From positions 1 to 45,007 of IMG/VR virus record IMGVR_UViG_3300006105_000007: 45,007 bases of DNA; one strand, given 5' to 3'. Under the pieces are notes generated by a model. That model was not told the DNA's origin and made no database searches. It saw only the letters and a list, made by a program, of their open reading frames with translations. Shown piece by piece: positions 19,864 through 37,803 of this stretch. A program made the translations under genes and the position numbers. Position 1 is the first letter of the stretch. Each line of letters starts with the position of its first letter. This stretch comes from a virus. Lineage: Duplodnaviria; Caudoviricetes.

Positions 19864-19929
19864 CTATTCGTCGTGGTTTGTCCGGGGAAGGGCGCGAACC
19901 CTCGGAACGTTAGCGCAAGGGAAACAAAA

Positions 19930-21645
19930 ATGTCTGAATTAAAAGACCGTGAACTAATGTTTGCGGACGTTTTATATGTGCAGTGCGAAGGCGACTTATT
20001 AGTGCCTGCTGACAGGTACTACTCTGGTGAAGCTCTAGTTGACTGGCTAAAAGGCTGTGCAATGGCTCCTGCATTCGCATCTTATTGCGCTCAGAGTCTA
20101 GGGGTGAAACATACCGGGGTATCGGGGGTTCTACATTTTTTCGCTGATAGCGGTACATTACGAGCATGTGATTATCCGGAACCGTTGCCGTTTGTGGCGA
20201 CCACCGAAGGCTGGGAAGTATTCCAAGCTGGGGTACGTCAATTCTGCGACGGGATGACAGACGAAGAGACTAATCGGGAGTTGCATCTGGTTTCTGCGTA
20301 CTTTACTGAGAGAATGCGTAGAACTACGGGGAGTTCGGTCACGCAGGAAGATATTTGCCCTTGCATTGACTGCACTAGGCAGAATATGCGCCGTCGTCAA
20401 TACCGAAGGCGTCTGACTCGTAACTTGTTAGATATGCGGGTCTACCGTAACCGGGATCGTGCGGAAAGGCTGATAATGGCGCTTTGGGGCAATTATCGCT
20501 TTCATCTGCGACATGCGCTCATCAGGGACTTCTTGGAACAGAGTGCGAACGTCGTGGACTGTCGTCCATTGGAGTGTTACCTATGGAAAGCTGAGGCGGT
20601 TGACGTATACGTTGACGGGGGGTTTGTCTGGCTACCGCTTATCCCTACTAACCGACAAGTCCGGGACATTCAGTCATGTTACTCGGAGCTGGGCTTCGAG
20701 GTATGGTGGAGTGCGGGTGGCGGGTGGGTTGTTGAACCACGCCACGATGAGGATGATGAGAATGACGACGATGATAACCAATCTAACTACATTCCTGATT
20801 ATCATTCCGTCTCTCGACCATGGCGCAGGCGAACTATTCAACCGTACGAAATGGGAATCGAGGTCGAAGCATTCTGCGATGAGCGGGGCGCATTGGCGGC
20901 TGATGTCTGCATAATCACGTCGGCATTTGACGAGCCTTGCCTCGCTGAGCGTGACGGGTCATTGGACGGCTCATACGGTATCGAATCGGTTACACCGCCC
21001 ACATATCTTGAGGACGCTAAGCGGTTAGCGGTTGAACTGTCTGAGGCTTTGCGCACTCATGATGCTAAGATTCCTAACAATGAATACGGGTTGCACGTAT
21101 CAATATGCACTCATGAGTGGTCCATATTGCATCTTGGTAAGTTTGAGGCATTTCTGAATGTCAACCAAGACGTGTGTGAATTGATCGCGCGGCGCGCACG
21201 CAACCATTGGTGCCAAACAGTAGAAGGGGGATTCACTGGGCGCATTAAAAGGTTCAAACGACATAGCAGATTTGACAAGTCACGCGGACATGGCATGATA
21301 CGGGAGGTACTGTCGTCAACGTCGGGGCATTATGATCTAGTTCAACTAGGCTCAAGTGGTCGTGCTGAAGTTCGTATGTTTCGGTCATCCACTAAAGCTA
21401 TTAACCTCGTGGGTGCTATCGAATTTGTTCATGCCGTAGCCTCCTACACTCGTGATTGCTCGGTTAGCCAAACGGCTGATGGCGGGGTGTGTGATTTACC
21501 GGCGTTTTGGCGCTTCTGCTGGGAACGTCGCAAGCGGGATTATCCTAACCTATTCAAATATGCCTTGGAGTGTGGGGTAGACACCTCGCTCCCTATTCGT
21601 AATGATCGCCTTGAAAAGATTCAAAAATCTGGAGTTGTTGCTTAA
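19930..21645 (+). CDS. Putative amidoligase (COOH-NH2 ligase, glutamine-synthetase-like fold)
   Basis: MGIEVE, ERDGSL, GIESVTPP, GLHVSI and AEVRMFRS motifs. Confidence 0.88.
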   Translation: MSELKDRELMFADVLYVQCEGDLLVPADRYYSGEALVDWLKGCAMAPAFASYCAQSLGVKHTGVSGVLHFFADSGTLRACDYPEPLPFVATTEGWEVFQAGVRQFCDGMTDEETNRELHLVSAYFTERMRRTTGSSVTQEDICPCIDCTRQNMRRRQYRRRLTRNLLDMRVYRNRDRAERLIMALWGNYRFHLRHALIRDFLEQSANVVDCRPLECYLWKAEAVDVYVDGGFVWLPLIPTNRQVRDIQSCYSELGFEVWWSAGGGWVVEPRHDEDDENDDDDNQSNYIPDYHSVSRPWRRRTIQPYEMGIEVEAFCDERGALAADVCIITSAFDEPCLAERDGSLDGSYGIESVTPPTYLEDAKRLAVELSEALRTHDAKIPNNEYGLHVSICTHEWSILHLGKFEAFLNVNQDVCELIARRARNHWCQTVEGGFTGRIKRFKRHSRFDKSRGHGMIREVLSSTSGHYDLVQLGSSGRAEVRMFRSSTKAINLVGAIEFVHAVASYTRDCSVSQTADGGVCDLPAFWRFCWERRKRDYPNLFKYALECGVDTSLPIRNDRLEKIQKSGVVA

Positions 21646-21646
21646 A

Positions 21647-22771
21647 ATGTGTTTAATCATTTCTTCTCAGCCTATCGAAGTTGCTGGTAAGCCTTGCGTA
21701 TCTCTGGAGACTATTAAGTCGGCTATTGCGGCCAACCCTCATGGCGTCGGCGTAGCGTGGGCCGACGGGCGCGTACACGTTAAAAGGCGGGTTCGCGCTA
21801 ACGCTGAAACGGTACATAAGCTGATTACCTCCTTGCATGAAGCCGGGTTCGCTTGGACGTTTCATACTCGCTTTGCGACTCATGGCAAAGTCAACGAAGC
21901 TAACACTCATCCTGTTCAGTTATCCGACGAAGTGGTCTTGTCACACAACGGGATTTTGAGCGGGTACGGTTCTACGGAGGTGTCTGATACTCGTGAGTTT
22001 TGCCGAGTTCACTTGCGCGGTATTCGTGCTGATGCGGTCCACGATCCTGAGACTATCGAACGGTTAGAACGTATGGGTGTGATGCGTGGCTCTAAGTTCG
22101 CCATACTCTCGCACGATGGCCGTATCTCTCATGTCAATAAGGATGCCGGTTATAAGTGCGACCTTACCGGGTGTTGGTTCTCCGCGTATGGTTACGCATA
22201 TGGGCAAGAGTATGATGCTTTCGACTATGGGTGGAATCATTCGCCCAGCACACCTATGTCGTCGCGCACCAATACCTCATGCGCCACCCGTAGGCTCGTG
22301 ATTAAGCATTACAAGGCTGAGGATATTCTTAGTGCCGCAGATTGGGCGCGTATTAAGTCAGGAGAGATAACACTGGACCTTGCCTGTGAGTGGGCGGCTG
22401 ATGATTATTTATTAGACTATGACCCATTAACGGGGTTATTCGTAGACCGTTACTGGTACTGGGATAACATGTCCGCGACCGGCACCACCATTAACCGCTA
22501 CTTGGAAGATAAAGCCTCTGAGAGTCTGGGGGTAGAACAGGAGCGGCATACTGACTCATTACCTCCTCTTGAGGACGGTTATATTCTCGTTGCGGCGAAT
22601 TCGCCATTGGTACCGATACCTCTGGAGTGGAAGTTTACTGGCCCGGCGTTTACTCGATGGTACGCATCCACCGCTTCCGGGGGCATGACGTGCAAGCAAC
22701 TATATGAGGCATCCGGGGCGCGTTACGCAATGCCCTGCCAGTCGGCCTCTGAACTTGTCAAGAGTAGTTAA
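21647..22771 (+). CDS. Class II (Ntn) glutamine amidotransferase with C-terminal extension
   Basis: True start MCLII (Cys2 nucleophile); NPHGVG, HTRFATHG, NTHP, HNGIL and SDTREF motifs. Confidence 0.9.
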   Translation: MCLIISSQPIEVAGKPCVSLETIKSAIAANPHGVGVAWADGRVHVKRRVRANAETVHKLITSLHEAGFAWTFHTRFATHGKVNEANTHPVQLSDEVVLSHNGILSGYGSTEVSDTREFCRVHLRGIRADAVHDPETIERLERMGVMRGSKFAILSHDGRISHVNKDAGYKCDLTGCWFSAYGYAYGQEYDAFDYGWNHSPSTPMSSRTNTSCATRRLVIKHYKAEDILSAADWARIKSGEITLDLACEWAADDYLLDYDPLTGLFVDRYWYWDNMSATGTTINRYLEDKASESLGVEQERHTDSLPPLEDGYILVAANSPLVPIPLEWKFTGPAFTRWYASTASGGMTCKQLYEASGARYAMPCQSASELVKSS

Positions 22772-23276: not shown

Positions 23277-23696
23277 CTATTCGTCGGCGAATGGGTCATA
23301 CTCCTCGGTCGCAGTCGCTGTAGTGCCCGATGACGTGGAACGGTTACCGGTGCCTGTGTTAGCGGGGTCCCCGTCATCGTCACGTCTCTCTAGCCCATTA
23401 ACGCTATCTGCTACCAATTCCCAGATACGCACTTCCTGCCCGTCTTGCGCGGTCCACTTGCGCTCTTCCATCCGTCCGGTGGCGCTTGCCAATTTACCCT
23501 TCCGTAAGTAGTCACCGGCGTACCTCGCGGATTGCTCCCAGCATGTAACGCGAAAGAAGTCAGCGGTCGGTGATCCCTCCTGACGCTTCCCGCGGCGATT
23601 CACGGCTAGGGTGAAGGAGCAGGTGGTTTTGCCGCTGTTCGTCGTCCTGACCTCTGGGTCCTTCGTCAGTCGGCCCACAATACTAATATTATTCAT
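23277..23696 (-). CDS. ssb: Single-stranded DNA-binding protein
   Basis: IVGRLTKDPEVRTT, ADFFRVTCW and an acidic tail EEYDPFADE. Confidence 0.96.
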   Translation of the reverse strand: MNNISIVGRLTKDPEVRTTNSGKTTCSFTLAVNRRGKRQEGSPTADFFRVTCWEQSARYAGDYLRKGKLASATGRMEERKWTAQDGQEVRIWELVADSVNGLERRDDDGDPANTGTGNRSTSSGTTATATEEYDPFADE

Positions 23697-32340: not shown

Positions 32341-32904
32341 TCAGTAATGGCGCACCTCCCAGAAGATCGTGTTATCGCCTGTATCTGTTAATGGGCCGTC
32401 AATGGTTGTGAACTCCACGACCGCACCGTCAAACTTGTCAAGTAGGTGATTCAGCATCTCGTATGAATTGTTGTCCATGCGCGACTGTAATAGCATGAGC
32501 GCATACAGGCCGGTACAGTGATACTGCTCGGTCGCTAACGCAATTCTCATGGGTAGCTTGCAGGGACTCCAACGCAGGGATAGCCCTTCATGGGTCCGCA
32601 TGGCTTCGCCTTGGATCAAGATACGGTCATCATCAATACACCGACTGAGCGTAACTCGCTCAAGGTCAGCACCCTCGCAAATCCACTGGTTGAGTATGTA
32701 CGGAACCTCGACTGGGCGCAATCTCTGCCCGTATCGCGGAAACGTGCAACCACCGATCCCTAGATACCGAAGCATCCATCGCCCGTCACTATGCCGTGGT
32801 AGGTTTCGATAAATCGTGTTAAACCCAATATAGGTTTCAACCTGCCAACCGAACTCCCCTCGCTTGAGGAGTTCGGCCATTTGTTGCTTGGATTCTATGC
32901 GCAT
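32341..32904 (-). CDS. Hypothetical protein (possible ATP-grasp-like C-terminus)
   Basis: 187 aa coupled to the clamp gene; IQGE and VVEFT...IFWEVR motifs. Confidence 0.6.
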   Translation of the reverse strand: MRIESKQQMAELLKRGEFGWQVETYIGFNTIYRNLPRHSDGRWMLRYLGIGGCTFPRYGQRLRPVEVPYILNQWICEGADLERVTLSRCIDDDRILIQGEAMRTHEGLSLRWSPCKLPMRIALATEQYHCTGLYALMLLQSRMDNNSYEMLNHLLDKFDGAVVEFTTIDGPLTDTGDNTIFWEVRHY

Positions 32905-34019
32905 CAGGCACCTACCTTGAAGGTTGCAATGACTGCGCGGAACTTCATCTCGTCACTGACTGGGGTGACCAGCGCAGAGTGGGTGCCGCTGTACGGGTTA
33001 CGTGCAATCGAAATCGTAATCTTCTCGGCTGGTTTGCAAGCACGAATAGCTTCAAGCACCTGGCTTGCGTCCAGGATAACTTTCTCTCCCGTGCCTGTGA
33101 TTTCACAAGGAAGTGATTCTTCTGACTTACGGGGCGGGTTGAGGCTAATCGCAGACATCTTGACTGCTGACGCGGAACCTGGAACAATGTCCAGCTTGCG
33201 TTCGTCGTCGTGAGTGCTGGCGAATCGACCCAAAGCCGCCTCTAGCATGGACCGATTGAACGTGTACGTGAAGATGGGGGTCACATCAAACAGCTTCTCC
33301 CACTTCGGCGGCAACGAACCAGATACACGCTGACTTACGATCTCATGGCCATCCAGCGTCCCGGCATGGATGCGGTAATCGTTCCAGCGAATTAGCAATC
33401 GACCCTTATGCTTCATAGCAATAATGGCCGCAACCATCCTGGGTGGCAACAAAATCGTGCCCGTCGTGGACTCGGTAGCCGAGTCGATTGTGTCCGCATG
33501 GAGTCGAACCTTATCCGTCGCTACCAGACTCATATCCTTGCCAGTGCAAGTCACGCAAGGGCACTCAAACGGAAGCGAGATGCGCGTCTTCATGAGGGCC
33601 GGTCGAATGCGCTCCAAGGATTCTCGCAATAGGTCGGCGTCTACCGAAATACCTTCCTCTTGGGCTAGTACGGGAATCTGCGGAAAATCGGTTGATTCTA
33701 AGACACTGAATCGAATATCACCGTTGCGCCATTTAAGCCGACACTTTGATTCACGAAAGGTGATCGTAATAGTGGGTGACTCAATCGTCCAGATTGGGCT
33801 CAGGACCCTTGGGTCCACGCAAAAGTCTCCTAGGATTTCATTCTCAATCTGAATGACCTGCGATTGCCACGTCTCTCGTGAAAATCCTGCAATCAAAAGT
33901 TGATTGACGCCGAACTTGAATCGGACAAATGTGGACGCGTCTCCTCCACCTGGAGCATTCGCAAACTTAACGGCGAGTCGTAGTGATTCTGTGGGTACTA
34001 CCCATTCTTGTACTTGCAT
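32904..34019 (-). CDS. dnaN: DNA polymerase III beta sliding clamp (divergent)
   Basis: 371 aa, three-domain length; DFPQIP and LVATDKVRL motifs. Confidence 0.82.
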   Translation of the reverse strand: MQVQEWVVPTESLRLAVKFANAPGGGDASTFVRFKFGVNQLLIAGFSRETWQSQVIQIENEILGDFCVDPRVLSPIWTIESPTITITFRESKCRLKWRNGDIRFSVLESTDFPQIPVLAQEEGISVDADLLRESLERIRPALMKTRISLPFECPCVTCTGKDMSLVATDKVRLHADTIDSATESTTGTILLPPRMVAAIIAMKHKGRLLIRWNDYRIHAGTLDGHEIVSQRVSGSLPPKWEKLFDVTPIFTYTFNRSMLEAALGRFASTHDDERKLDIVPGSASAVKMSAISLNPPRKSEESLPCEITGTGEKVILDASQVLEAIRACKPAEKITISIARNPYSGTHSALVTPVSDEMKFRAVIATFKVGA

Positions 34020-34021
34020 TC

Positions 34022-34243
34022 CTAGTAATTCTCCAGCCCAGGCAGTTTCGGTTGCGCAGGGGATTGGTCGAGGTGTAATCGGTAACGAGTCGATAGGCGG
34101 TGGATTGATGAAATCGGCACCCCAGTCAACTCATAGACTTGTTGTGCGGTCATTTGCTGGCCGATGTAGAGATTGTAGACTTCCTCGCATACCTCTATGG
34201 AATACGTGTTAGGTCGCCCTTTTCCTTTTCCTGTGAACACCAT
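34022..34243 (-). CDS. Small HTH DNA-binding protein
   Basis: GRP..YS and TAQQVYELTGVPISSIHR. Confidence 0.75.
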   Translation of the reverse strand: MVFTGKGKGRPNTYSIEVCEEVYNLYIGQQMTAQQVYELTGVPISSIHRLSTRYRLHLDQSPAQPKLPGLENY

Positions 34244-34330: not shown

Positions 34331-34951
34331 ATGGAAAACGAAACCCATACCGCAAAACCCGACTTCATGGGCATGACCGAAACCGAATATCAGGCATGGA
34401 TTGAGGAAGCATTGGCTAACCCTACCACCCCTGAAAAATCATTTGAAATTGATTCCGACGGCGCACTTGATTGGGTTCTTGGCAAGTTCCTAGAATGCGA
34501 AAGCCAACTACAAGCAATTCAGAACAGCCCCGAGGTCATCCGAGCCAAGGCAATCATCGCCAATGCCCAAGACCTAGAGAGGCGCGCCAAGGAGCGCATT
34601 GAGCGATTACACGGTCGATTTGACAATGAAATCGCCCATTACGTTCAAGCGAAATTGGAAGGGAAACGCACTCGCACGTACCGAACCCTCCTGGGAGCCG
34701 TATCATTGAGAAACAAGGCCGCAGGATTAACTGTGATAAACAAGGAGTCGGCTCTTGAGTGGGCTAAAGACGCATACCCTGCCGCTGTCACGACCGAGAT
34801 CAAAGAGTCGTTCAAGATTTCCGAAGTGGACAGTGTTATGAAAGCGATTCTCATGGCGGAATCGAACGACACATTGGCTCGTCGTGGACTGCTGGCGACA
34901 CCTGCGACTGAAACACTTACGATTACGACGGGGGTTGGTGGTGCAGAGTAG
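34331..34951 (+). CDS. Host-nuclease inhibitor Gam-like protein
   Basis: FEIDSDGALDWVLGK, coiled coil, RTLLGAVSLR and ALEWAK motifs. Confidence 0.72.
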   Translation: MENETHTAKPDFMGMTETEYQAWIEEALANPTTPEKSFEIDSDGALDWVLGKFLECESQLQAIQNSPEVIRAKAIIANAQDLERRAKERIERLHGRFDNEIAHYVQAKLEGKRTRTYRTLLGAVSLRNKAAGLTVINKESALEWAKDAYPAAVTTEIKESFKISEVDSVMKAILMAESNDTLARRGLLATPATETLTITTGVGGAE

Positions 34952-35558
34952 CGAGTCAGCCGTTATAGAGTTAGCGATTAGTCGTTACTTCCCTGAGGCG
35001 TACGATTTACCATGCGCCTCAGTGTGTGGCGGGTTTATTCGTAGCACCCTAGAGGGGACGCCTCCGAATGACCTGGACGTATTCTTTGATAGCCCCGATT
35101 CGTTATATGGGGCTGTCGCTAAGATTTGCGGGGTAGGTCGATACATATGCACGGAAACGCGTTATGCGTTTACGTTTGTAAACGGTTCCAAGAAGATTCA
35201 GTTCATCAAAAATATTTACGGACAATATAACGAATTGCCTTTACAATTCGACTTTACGGTTTGTATGGCATCAATTCCGCTTATCCCTGGGTCTAACGTA
35301 TTCATGTCGGGCCTATGTCGTGATGATTTAACAGCGCGACGTATCCGCATTTATGGAATCACCGACGCGCTAGGCACTTTGAGGCGCGTGGCGCGGTATA
35401 TGGAATACGGTTACTCTATTGAACCGTGTGACATTCTCACTATTCACGACGCTTTATCTCTGCAACGCCCCAAAGGTGACGACTATCCCGAAGAAACACT
35501 TCTTCCTACAACCAGTACAGCCTTGTGCCCAGACGAGTATGACCCGTTTGCAATGTAA
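34941..35558 (+). CDS. Nucleotidyltransferase (CCA-adding/poly(A) polymerase head-like)
   Basis: GGFIRS...PNDLDVFF (hG[GS]..DxD), IQFI, FDFTVC and LRRVARYMEYGY motifs. Confidence 0.8.
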   Translation: MQSSESAVIELAISRYFPEAYDLPCASVCGGFIRSTLEGTPPNDLDVFFDSPDSLYGAVAKICGVGRYICTETRYAFTFVNGSKKIQFIKNIYGQYNELPLQFDFTVCMASIPLIPGSNVFMSGLCRDDLTARRIRIYGITDALGTLRRVARYMEYGYSIEPCDILTIHDALSLQRPKGDDYPEETLLPTTSTALCPDEYDPFAM

Positions 35559-35560
35559 TC

Positions 35561-36283
35561 ATGGAAGCAAAGAAAACATCTCACGTATATGAAGCAATTT
35601 CCAGCGTCATGTTGGAACTGTCCAAAGAAGGTATCGGTAAGGAGGGATACAACCCAAGTCAAAAGTACAAGTTCCGTGGAATTGACGCGGTATATAATGC
35701 CTTGTCGTCGCTTCTCGCGGCTAACAAACTTGTCATCATTCCACGAGTCCTCGACCATAAGCTAGAGGAGCGTGTTACCTCCAACGGTGGCCGCATGGCT
35801 TACTCGTTTGTTGACGTGGAATTCGATCTTGTGTCGTCAGTGGATGGGTCAACCCACACGTGCCGAACAAGGGGCGAAGGGATGGATACCTCCGACAAGT
35901 CCACTAACAAAGCGATGTCGGCGGCTTACAAGTACATGGCGTTCATGCTGTTTTGTATCCCAACCGAGGGTGATAATGATGCTGACGCGCACACTCCGCA
36001 GGTTATGGCGAGAGGTGAGCGACCTCGCGACGAGCAGGTACAACGCACAGTCGCCGCCGCACCCAATACAAATGAGCGTGACGCTGGCGCGTGGCTAAAG
36101 AAGATCGGACTGCAAGCCGAAGCATTCAAGGAGTTCAAGGCCGCGATTCCACCGGACATGTTGTGGTACAACGTAGCTCTGGATGCGTCAGCGCGAGGTG
36201 TGACCAACGTAACCGAGCTAATGATTTACGTCAAGGAAGGTCGGGCTCCAGGTTTTGAATCAGTGGTGGGCAACGATGATTAA
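35561..36283 (+). CDS. erf: ERF family ssDNA annealing protein
   Basis: YKFRGIDAVYNAL and GEGMDTSDKSTNKAMSAAYKY...FCIPTEGDNDAD motifs. Confidence 0.9.
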   Translation: MEAKKTSHVYEAISSVMLELSKEGIGKEGYNPSQKYKFRGIDAVYNALSSLLAANKLVIIPRVLDHKLEERVTSNGGRMAYSFVDVEFDLVSSVDGSTHTCRTRGEGMDTSDKSTNKAMSAAYKYMAFMLFCIPTEGDNDADAHTPQVMARGERPRDEQVQRTVAAAPNTNERDAGAWLKKIGLQAEAFKEFKAAIPPDMLWYNVALDASARGVTNVTELMIYVKEGRAPGFESVVGNDD

Positions 36284-36656
36284 CTTGCAATCGTGTCTAT
36301 TGTCTGACCAGTCGGAGTCCACAAAGGGAGGGCGAGTCTACGGGGTCGCCCTCCAGGGCACTCTTGATGATTTGCACCATGCCTATTGTCGAATCATGGA
36401 GCAATCGACTGAGCCCGGTAGTGAACTGCAAGTCTATTACCACCGCATAGGCGAGGTGGAATGCTGTGTACCCATCTTTAATCCGCGCCGAGAACTAACG
36501 TATTTGGTCGTGATGTCACCTAAAAGTGACGTGGTGCTGGATGACCTGACGCTCGTTCCATTGCATGACGATTATCCCCTAACGCGATACGAGTATAGAG
36601 TCATGCAGCATTTAGACAAACCGTCACAGGTTCGTGTGTGGAGGGTTGGGCCATGA
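36276..36656 (+). CDS. Hypothetical protein
   Basis: MINLQ... overlaps the erf stop. Confidence 0.55.
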   Translation: MINLQSCLLSDQSESTKGGRVYGVALQGTLDDLHHAYCRIMEQSTEPGSELQVYYHRIGEVECCVPIFNPRRELTYLVVMSPKSDVVLDDLTLVPLHDDYPLTRYEYRVMQHLDKPSQVRVWRVGP

Positions 36657-36741
36657 ATCTACTTTCGCAATTTTGGCTGTCAGCTACATGCTCATTGCGG
36701 CCTGTACTGCTGAGGAATTCACAAGTGGTTGAGGTGAGCGA

Positions 36742-37035
36742 ATGAGTCCCGAAGAAAAGCAAGCATTCTTTGCATCGTTCAAATCCGTTAAGCCTAACGC
36801 CAAGAAGATAGCCGAAGACGAAAATAAAAACTTACGATTTGCTATTTGCGGGGACCATCCCCACTCAGGAAAACAAGGCACGTTGGGGGTCGTTGACGGC
36901 AATATAAGCACTATTCAATTATTCGGAAAGACCATGTACGCAATTAAGTTTGACCCCGATATTGCAGAACATCAAGATCAAGGATGCTTTGCCGAAAAGA
37001 AGAACTTAAAGCCAATTTATGAGGCCAACAAGTGA
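36742..37035 (+). CDS. Hypothetical protein (possible SH3/KOW-like barrel)
   Basis: GAGGTG RBS; HPHSGKQGT motif. Confidence 0.6.
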   Translation: MSPEEKQAFFASFKSVKPNAKKIAEDENKNLRFAICGDHPHSGKQGTLGVVDGNISTIQLFGKTMYAIKFDPDIAEHQDQGCFAEKKNLKPIYEANK

Positions 37036-37280
37036 GCAACAAACCAACCCCCGACCATATTCCCGACACCGACGCTTGCCCTAACTGTGATTCCTTAGTT
37101 AAAGAGGTGGCAAAGCTAAGGGACTTTATTGAGGGCCTTATTGCCGAACACGAAAGGCATCAAGCAGAAGGGTTATTGATCGTATGGGGGCAAGGATCGC
37201 TTGCGACAATAAAGCACGTATTAAGCAAGTTGCCCACTCCCCCATCTACTGAACCAAAGGAGGAACCAAATGATAACTAG
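37032..37280 (+). CDS. Hypothetical protein
   Basis: GTGA overlap; CPNC motif. Confidence 0.55.
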   Translation: MSNKPTPDHIPDTDACPNCDSLVKEVAKLRDFIEGLIAEHERHQAEGLLIVWGQGSLATIKHVLSKLPTPPSTEPKEEPNDN

Positions 37281-37803
37281 AAAATCGGCCCCGCCGCAAG
37301 CAAACTGGTGGGCCAACGTGAACACGCAAATCATACTTTTCTGTTGTGCGAGCTTGATAGTATTGTGGTGTACGTGTGGGCGTTTGCTGGTGCCTGATGT
37401 CAAGCAGATCGGCAGTAAGGAACCGTCCTCGCAATACGTATGGCTTGACAGTGGGTCATCTGTGCAACCAGTGGCTTATTGGGGTGAATTTAGAGATGGG
37501 GACGTATTCAGCGTGGGGCAGTACACCGCAAGAATGTACCACCATAAGCCAACAAGGTCTTACAATGAACCTATACCCAAGAAATCCGAACCCCGTGGGT
37601 ACCTGACAATGGCTATGAGGTCGCTAGATAGTGGGGGTGTGCATAAACTTGTTTTCTACGGCCCCATATCGAGGCTACACACGATACTTTACGAGGTCGA
37701 CCATATGAAACCGCCGCAGGTTTTGTATGGTATGCCCTGCACGGATTTTGATCGTTACCAAAAGCAAAGTAAATCCGTGTTATCGTTCCATGTAGATAAA
37801 TAG
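37270..37803 (+). CDS. Membrane-anchored hypothetical protein
   Basis: AGGAGG RBS; N-terminal hydrophobic IILFCCASLIVLW. Confidence 0.6.
   Translation: MITRKSAPPQANWWANVNTQIILFCCASLIVLWCTCGRLLVPDVKQIGSKEPSSQYVWLDSGSSVQPVAYWGEFRDGDVFSVGQYTARMYHHKPTRSYNEPIPKKSEPRGYLTMAMRSLDSGGVHKLVFYGPISRLHTILYEVDHMKPPQVLYGMPCTDFDRYQKQSKSVLSFHVDK

Follow-up and report, generated by a model that had tools for sequence, protein, structure and literature searches.

Gad2 (Gabija anti-defence 2), the product of ORF159 of the Bacillus phage SPbetaL7 and a member of Pfam family PF26128, is a nucleotidyltransferase (NTase) whose knock-out sensitises the phage to Gabija (10.1101/2023.05.01.538930); its mechanism is described as still open (PMC12904381, PMC13728456). 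Gabija is licensed by phage recombination modules: Mu Gam homologues (JBD30, F8) and Exo-Erf (D3) each do so, keeping RecBCD off DNA ends (10.1101/2025.08.30.673261). The demonstration is limited to one Gabija system, from Pseudomonas, together with RecBCD, and the accessible text describes no counter-defence gene inside these modules. A further known element is the acidic C-terminal tip of bacterial SSBs, which reads DDDIPF in E. coli (PMC5872125). Here we describe a small NTase gene in the phage contig IMGVR_UViG_3300006105_000007 (Duplodnaviria; Caudoviricetes; 45,007 bp, in the following "the window"). Its product belongs to the Gad2 family, ends in a mimic of an SSB tip, and is flanked by the same two families, Mu Gam and ERF, that occur in the Gabija-licensing modules.

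Like SPbetaL7 Gad2, the enzyme is phage-borne, sits in an exchangeable slot and has an NTase domain with the motifs GG, DxD, Q, FDFTVC and R..KY/RY. On the other hand, it has 205 residues instead of 400, it carries the SSB-tip tail that is missing from Gad2, and its gene is flanked by Gam and ERF. The explanation that we favour, with a probability of roughly 0.4, is that it is an accessory counter-defence enzyme, docked by its SSB-tip mimic, which offsets the Gabija sensing provoked by Gam and ERF. We came to this reading because Gad2 has an anti-Gabija role, because Gam and Exo-Erf are Gabija triggers, and because Gabija occurs in Fimbriimonadales, the likely host lineage: an OLD-nuclease domain is found in 24 of 228 Fimbriimonadales genomes, and 5 of the 20 loci fetched carry GajA-GajB pairs (L378, L380, L386, L393 and L395). 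In this scheme a phage infecting Fimbriimonadales would carry the NTase inside its DNA-end recombination module, and the neighbouring Gam and ERF proteins would provoke Gabija-type sensing. The copy of the host-type SSB tip would then dock the NTase on proteins at phage DNA ends and forks, where the enzyme would transfer a nucleotide onto the DNA end or onto a component of the defence and so blunt the sensing. The host, the co-expression of the genes, the catalytic activity, the docking and the anti-Gabija role are all steps that we infer.

Several sequence comparisons identify the protein as a stand-alone Gad2-family nucleotidyltransferase and not as a CCA-adding enzyme. PF26128 is present in its precomputed annotation, its nearest Atlas clusters are those of the Gad2 family (0.98), and tblastn aligns it with SPbetaL7 Gad2 at 23.5% identity (E 2e-4). 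Furthermore, a 72-sequence family profile compared by hhalign with Gad2 residues 10-191 gave 99.8% (E 6e-30). The match stops at residue 191 and the C-terminal half of Gad2 is absent, which lowers orthology to Gad2 but not membership in the domain family. Local searches with Pfam and PADLOC found no match for the NTase; Pfam found none for Gad2 either, so that the model is seemingly absent there. A sequence search of solved structures returned nothing relevant. The catalytic GG...DxD and FDFT are intact (GGFIR, D44-x-D46 and FDFT), and in the aligned family (n = 72) D44 is kept in 71 sequences, D46 in all 72, and Arg149 is invariant. Judged by these residues, it is probably an active, minimal member of the family.

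One motif B arginine of CCA enzymes selects ribose over deoxyribose; here both motif B arginines are replaced. The AlphaFold2 model (10-sequence alignment, mean pLDDT 76) has the fold of the class II CCA/poly(A) head and neck (Foldseek E 6e-7, TM 0.53-0.56; PDB 4wby, 1vfg, 5hc9), and motif A is common to both. Profile comparison with an Armatimonadota CCA enzyme likewise gave a match (96%, E 4e-9) with the DxD of motif A aligned. While fold and motif A are shared, the features that class II CCA enzymes have beyond them are not: RRD of motif B reads QFD (F in 71 of 72 family rows), the strand aspartate is Gln87, and the amino-acid template of motif D (EDxxR or xDxxR) is degenerate, the aligned region TDALG(T) being without its arginine and not conserved across the family (for the roles of these motifs see PMC7947759). 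The tRNA-binding body and tail domains are absent as well, whereas host CCA enzymes are frames of 420-870 aa.

Next, we consider the C-terminal tail. The NTase ends in PDEYDPFAM and the SSB of the same phage in TEEYDPFADE, so that six residues, EYDPFA, are identical, and a six-frame scan of the genome finds YDPF at these two ends only. Taking about 60 genes and the final 12 residues of each, we roughly estimate the chance of meeting EYDPFA there at 4e-6 per genome. Three of the six codons differ at the third base between NTase and ssb; these silent differences do not discriminate between convergence and an ancient acquisition of the 3' end of ssb. The resemblance and the synonymous differences had both been pointed out in the initial annotation, which gave the SSB tail at 23277-23303, 3 nt off its actual position (23280-23306), and which missed the membership in the Gad2 family and the fact that the tip is the SSB tip of the host lineage. 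The structured part of the model stops near residue 178 and, because pLDDT is below 50 over residues 179-205, the tip is predicted to sit on a flexible linker. Acidic residues before Pro-Phe, the position at the end of a disordered linker and the six identical residues are shared with the Fimbriimonadales SSB tip (DEYDPFADE). The NTase tip differs in being carried by an enzyme and not by an OB fold, in its length beyond PF (two residues, against three in the SSB), and in the loss of the terminal acids; its binding to SSB-tip pockets is putative. Together with its conservation in relatives (see below), this supports a genuine mimicry of the SSB tip by the tail.

When 185,579 species genomes were scanned for EYDPFxDE followed by a stop, 105 loci were obtained, of which 96 are SSBs; by hand count, 90 of these 96 have Armatimonadota, Fimbriimonas or Chthonomonas in the record title. 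The residue before EYDPF is D in 84 of the 105 matches, and rpsF lies within 1.5 kb of ssb in 68 of the 80 loci with flanks. Note that the scan selects on the motif and does not give the share of Fimbriimonadales that use this tip. Identity between the phage SSB and the genome-derived SSBs that carry this tip reaches about 50%, and only the best 8 of the 120 relatives of the phage protein have YDPF. Homologues of the phage Gam protein, up to 42% identical, are present in 7 of 228 Fimbriimonadales genomes, next to Sak4-like, Dda-like or SSB genes. Since the tip matches the SSBs of this lineage and Gam homologues are found in its genomes, the host is likely a Fimbriimonadales (Armatimonadota) bacterium, and the tail likely copies the non-canonical tip of a housekeeping SSB of the host lineage. 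No prophage copy of the NTase was found in 401 Armatimonadota genomes (incomplete samples), where 39 matches read as CCA-type by frame length, one of them checked by alignment. The gene was also not found in the 228 Fimbriimonadales genomes (incomplete samples), which gave 1 match, in a 559-aa frame. Fimbriimonadales-type ssb genes also occur in three records titled archaeon, Methanoregulaceae and Pyrinomonadaceae (L055, L058, L090), which are likely mis-binned or mis-titled.

For the tail in the wider family, we compared 150 listed relatives out of 597 clusters. P0002, P0003 and P0004, with core identities of 60, 42 and 35%, keep 7/7, 6/7 and 7/7 residues of the tip, while the linker keeps 17/20, 6/12 (it is shorter in P0003) and 3/20. 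A query without the tail still puts these three on top. The other 147 listed representatives include none that ends in YDPF or WDPF, and 30 of them end in the family-typical xID or xVD. The initial annotation had made retention of the tail in homologues a check of its claim; it holds for P0002-P0004 and, as far as this form of the tip is concerned, not for the rest of the listed relatives. To look beyond the YDPF form, we used 87 complete, non-redundant NTases of viral loci gathered via the FDFT motif, blind to the tail. Outside the group, acidic PF tips end 5 of these 87 proteins and 19 of 1883 other open reading frames (ORFs) of the same loci (p 0.003, kinship uncorrected), and canonical tips, DDLPF, NDIPF and DDVPF among them, are seen on other branches. 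In a quick, poorly resolved tree P0001-P0003 form a clade (98) and tip-bearing proteins are scattered. In summary, the sequences indicate that the tail is a recurring minority feature of the family. A canonical SSB was found in only 3 of the 44 other-phage records searched, with one weak tail-SSB lead in an SPbeta-like cluster.

Tips of this kind are also seen on other proteins. Gad2-like proteins of the cluster nearest to SPbetaL7 Gad2 (L253, L265, L273) end in acidic DPF or LPF tails, a 394-aa protein of L265 has repeated DPF motifs at its end, and the ORF after the P0004 NTase (L015:714-1469) has a tandem EYDPFDPF near its N-terminus. Phage SF2 helicases of about 580 aa near the NTase carry canonical acidic-PF tips, for example DDEIPF (L238, L239, L256, L268, L272, L277, L288, L293, L300). 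By sequence, SSB-tip tails on phage enzymes extend beyond the NTase. Two Armatimonadota proteins with a TIR_2 domain, ThsB-like, end in DEYDPFADE (L093:493-1527(+) and L029:1501-2100(-)), the latter near an ORF that by eye looks like SIR2; possibly these are defence sensors using the same tag. The tip is also present on non-OB-fold proteins of prophage or viral origin (L079:712-1527, L114) and of viruses (L133, L135, L140, L148, L158), which are possibly non-canonical SSBs; L135 and L158 belong to phrog_8542, and L079 matches no named family. An SSB-like phage protein ending in DDIPF is known from the literature (10.64898/2026.10.27.754916).

Comparison with related phages suggests that the NTase is not a fixed part of its operon. 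L013, L014 and L017 have the same gene order, with Gam 92-94% and ERF 98-99.6% identical to the window and the NTase only 63-64%; their NTase is the 60%-identical allele. The clamp gene is 89-99% identical in phages that differ across the exchanged block. Among the metagenome runs, X6 and X7 contain the diverged allele, and X2-X5 and X8 contain pieces of the one found in the window. Furthermore, a 137-nt contig of X6 (depth 2.76) joins position 34929 to 35557 and skips the NTase gene; it has 83 letters on the Gam side (11 differences) and 34 on the ERF side. This suggests that the gene is absent from some phages, and taken together the sequences mark the NTase as an accessory, exchangeable gene. 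The genes after ERF (36255-37803) are 62% and 48% identical in L013 and show insertions or losses in L014 and L017, a variability that marks the operon as an exchange hotspot.

For synteny we used L017 and 79 further viral records in which the enzyme is encoded, 80 in all; nine short or redundant loci were excluded. ERF is present in 8 of the 80 and Gam in 4, and the two occur together only in L017, the close relative of the phage, so that the synteny with both flanks which the initial annotation expected fails. Four of the other seven ERF matches lie within 1.5 kb of the NTase, and in L004 ERF is directly downstream of it. A search for relatives of the ERF in viral contigs found only that of L017. 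We then hand-classed the immediate same-strand neighbours (134 remained of 137 after removal of three duplicates or fragments) and, as a control, genes at least 5 kb away (73 of 75, two locus-end genes dropped). Annealase, SSB, exonuclease or SbcC make up 27/134 of the neighbours vs 1/73 of the distant genes; with one locus per 50% cluster this is 7/62 vs 1/73 (p 0.018), and if UvsX is counted the control becomes 2/73 and p 0.05. Unrelated branches show the orders ERF-NTase-exonuclease (L207), RecT-NTase-exonuclease (L228), gp2.5-NTase-exonuclease (L245), Sak4-NTase (L217) and SSB-NTase-clamp (L283 group). By gene order, then, a fixed Gam-NTase-ERF triple fails while a looser tie of the family to DNA-end and fork modules holds. 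Of the end-protection/tailing/annealing trio that had initially been proposed, the enrichment beside annealases, SSBs and exonucleases stands; the dedicated three-gene system, seen in 1/80 records and with the NTase gene skipped in one low-depth contig, is not supported.

A number of observations weigh against the counter-defence explanation. The enzyme is distant from Gad2 and is without its 200-residue C-terminal half; the PF26128-type family is large, and only two of its members have been assayed against Gabija. SPbetaL7 Gad2 has no SSB-like tail, so that the tail is dispensable for the one tested anti-Gabija member. Exo-Erf licensing required an active exonuclease (10.1101/2025.08.30.673261), and profile scans with Pfam and PHROG recognised none beside ERF. 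Most family members travel without both triggers: outside L017, Gam is found in 3/79 and ERF in 7/79 records, and the enrichment among neighbours fits a role in replication or in recombination equally well. As to the tail, the NTase tip has no counterpart of the terminal DE of the SSB; it ends in AM, and its relatives end in TM, AE or AD. The tail of P0002 lies within a DNA block conserved together with ERF, at a recombination boundary, and is therefore confounded and weak evidence. P0004 falls outside the P0001-P0003 clade in the quick tree, and its 2-kb contig has no ERF downstream. The tip rule was passed by 3 of the other 147 listed relatives, which is not above background (p 0.21). Finally, the gene-free junction rests on a single low-depth contig in 1 of 7 runs.

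Of the other explanations, the one that survives best, although it too is unlikely, makes the NTase an accessory part of the recombination machinery of its own phage, a freer form of the tailing idea in the initial annotation. ERF or a helicase of the phage would then be the docking partner of the tail, and the enzyme would act on the 3' ends of DNA, extending or capping them and so helping annealing or blocking nucleases. The tight packing of the genes (the Gam and NTase genes have 11 nt in common, and the latter ends 2 nt before the ATG of ERF) fits this, as do the NTases between annealase and exonuclease in L207, L228 and L245, the order in the L283 group, the four close ERF matches and the replaced motif B arginines. 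Binding of annealases to SSB tips is documented, for Red-beta through the C-terminal domain (PMC6393309; see also PMC13490951). A complex prediction for ERF residues 160-240 and NTase residues 172-205 gave 0.12 vs a mark of 0.32 and counts neither for nor against this explanation. However, the gene-free contig joins Gam to ERF directly, the Gam-bearing prophages in 7 Fimbriimonadales genomes are without the NTase, and the core has been swapped for a 60%-identical allele beside an ERF that is 98-99% identical, which would be unusual for the subunit of a tight machine.

Rather improbable is a takeover of the host, in which the tail fills the SSB-tip pockets of RecQ, RecJ, PriA, RecO or primase and the enzyme nucleotidylates these proteins, independently of Gabija. 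Such conserved housekeeping targets suit the fast exchange of alleles and the loss of the gene less well than a variable defence target would, and most family members have no tip. It is true that the tail equals the host-type tip, that expressed SPbetaL7 Gad2 was toxic (10.1101/2023.05.01.538930), and that a Gad2-annotated phage NTase slowed the growth of P. putida 4.2 log2-fold under strong induction (10.64898/2026.09.15.751885). That SSB-interacting host proteins may be modified had also been the second idea of the initial annotation.

To a similar degree we doubt that the tail is a passenger without a docking role, a fragment from the 3' end of an ssb gene that recombination brought in and linkage has retained. 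In P0001 and P0002 one conserved DNA block comprises both the tail and the 5' end of ERF, the last two residues vary, and motifs of the DPF type are also seen on unrelated proteins and, in the ORF that follows P0004, at the N-terminus. A mere passenger, on the other hand, is hard to reconcile with P0004, where the tip is complete and linker and core have diverged, with P0003, where 6/7 tip residues follow a shorter linker, with the silent-site codon differences, or with the canonical tips on other branches. Least probable of all is a CCA-type enzyme for tRNA 3'-end repair: the solved structures closest in fold are class II CCA/A-adding enzymes (TM about 0.55) and small phage NTases, which may or may not be of this family, are annotated as tRNA nucleotidyltransferases (PMC7693777), but with motif B, the template arginine, the strand aspartate and the tRNA-binding domains lost, with no tRNA gene found in the phage genome and with DNA genes as family neighbours, simple CCA addition, which the initial annotation had considered as an alternative, is unlikely.

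The window comprises an entire phage contig with a 22-nt terminal repeat, and its sequence occurs in freshwater metagenome runs, none of those listed being of RNA. The gene content includes a Mu-like portal and protease, primase-helicase, beta clamp, resolvase and SSB. The features around the NTase are collected in Table 1; the three genes of the plus-strand trio and the NTase motifs are as the initial annotation had described them. Against PF07352 the Gam-like protein scores E 5.6e-5 and 23.6 bits (curated cut-off 28.3). GTG 34941 is most likely the start of the NTase, because the protein collection has the 205-aa form and three close relatives have ATG at that codon; for the same reasons a start at GTG 34884 was rejected. 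Promoter and terminator scans were at chance level (8 vs 5.3 and 4 vs 3.7). The trio is divergent from the beta clamp gene at 32904-34019(-), upstream of which a small ORF at 34022-34243(-) ends in QPKLPGLENY, presumably resembling a clamp-binding motif. Elsewhere, at 19873-22771(+), there is an amidoligase and class II glutamine amidotransferase gene pair.

Table 1. Positions of the NTase, its parts and related features in the window
Feature	Position	Strand	Evidence
Mu Gam-like DNA end-binding protein, 206 aa	34331..34951	+	phrog_2205 E 1.3e-11
Block exchanged between alleles: C-terminal portion of Gam (DNA 80% identical) and core of the NTase (61%)	34781..35468	+	comparison with related phages
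Gad2-family minimal nucleotidyltransferase (NTase), 205 aa, GTG start	34941..35558	+	PF26128, Atlas, tblastn, hhalign, fold
Catalytic D44-x-D46, motif A carboxylates	35070..35078	+	family alignment, CCA-enzyme alignment
FDFT motif, aligned to RRDFT motif B of CCA enzymes, both arginines replaced	35247..35258	+	
Linker, residues 177-196, predicted disordered, weakly conserved	35469..35528	+	pLDDT; 3/20 identical in P0004
SSB-tip mimic PDEYDPFAM, residues 197-205	35529..35555	+	matches tip of 96 genome SSBs
ERF single-strand annealing protein, 240 aa	35561..36283	+	PF04404 63.8 bits (cut-off 25, passed); phrog_155 E 1.5e-31
Phage SSB, 139 aa, ends EEYDPFADE, tip 23280-23306	23277..23696	-	PF00436 E 1.3e-27

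The domain family and the docking of SSB tips were already known. What is new is the lineage-specific tip on a Gad2-like enzyme, its accessory status and the context of Gabija triggers. Our literature search, with subscription journals largely outside it and without the homologue tables of the Gad2 preprint, brought up no paper in which a Gad2-like enzyme carries an SSB tip. As a broader and decidedly tentative proposal, which we consider doubtful in its full extent, Gad2-like NTases would be bodyguards in Gabija-triggering modules, some of them with an SSB-tip address tag tuned to the lineage, and SSB-tip pockets would be contested by phage counter-defence and host defence, given that the TIR-domain proteins L029 and L093 of the host lineage bear this tag too. 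A half-size Gad2-like enzyme with a separable tail, two alleles and likely absence, placed between Gabija-trigger families, makes a compact test system. Furthermore, a tail that tracks the unusual SSB tip of one lineage gives evidence of co-variation that is unavailable from canonical tips, and the tip can also be read as a marker of the host, which is useful for a phage that is uncultured and belongs with a phylum that has received little study.

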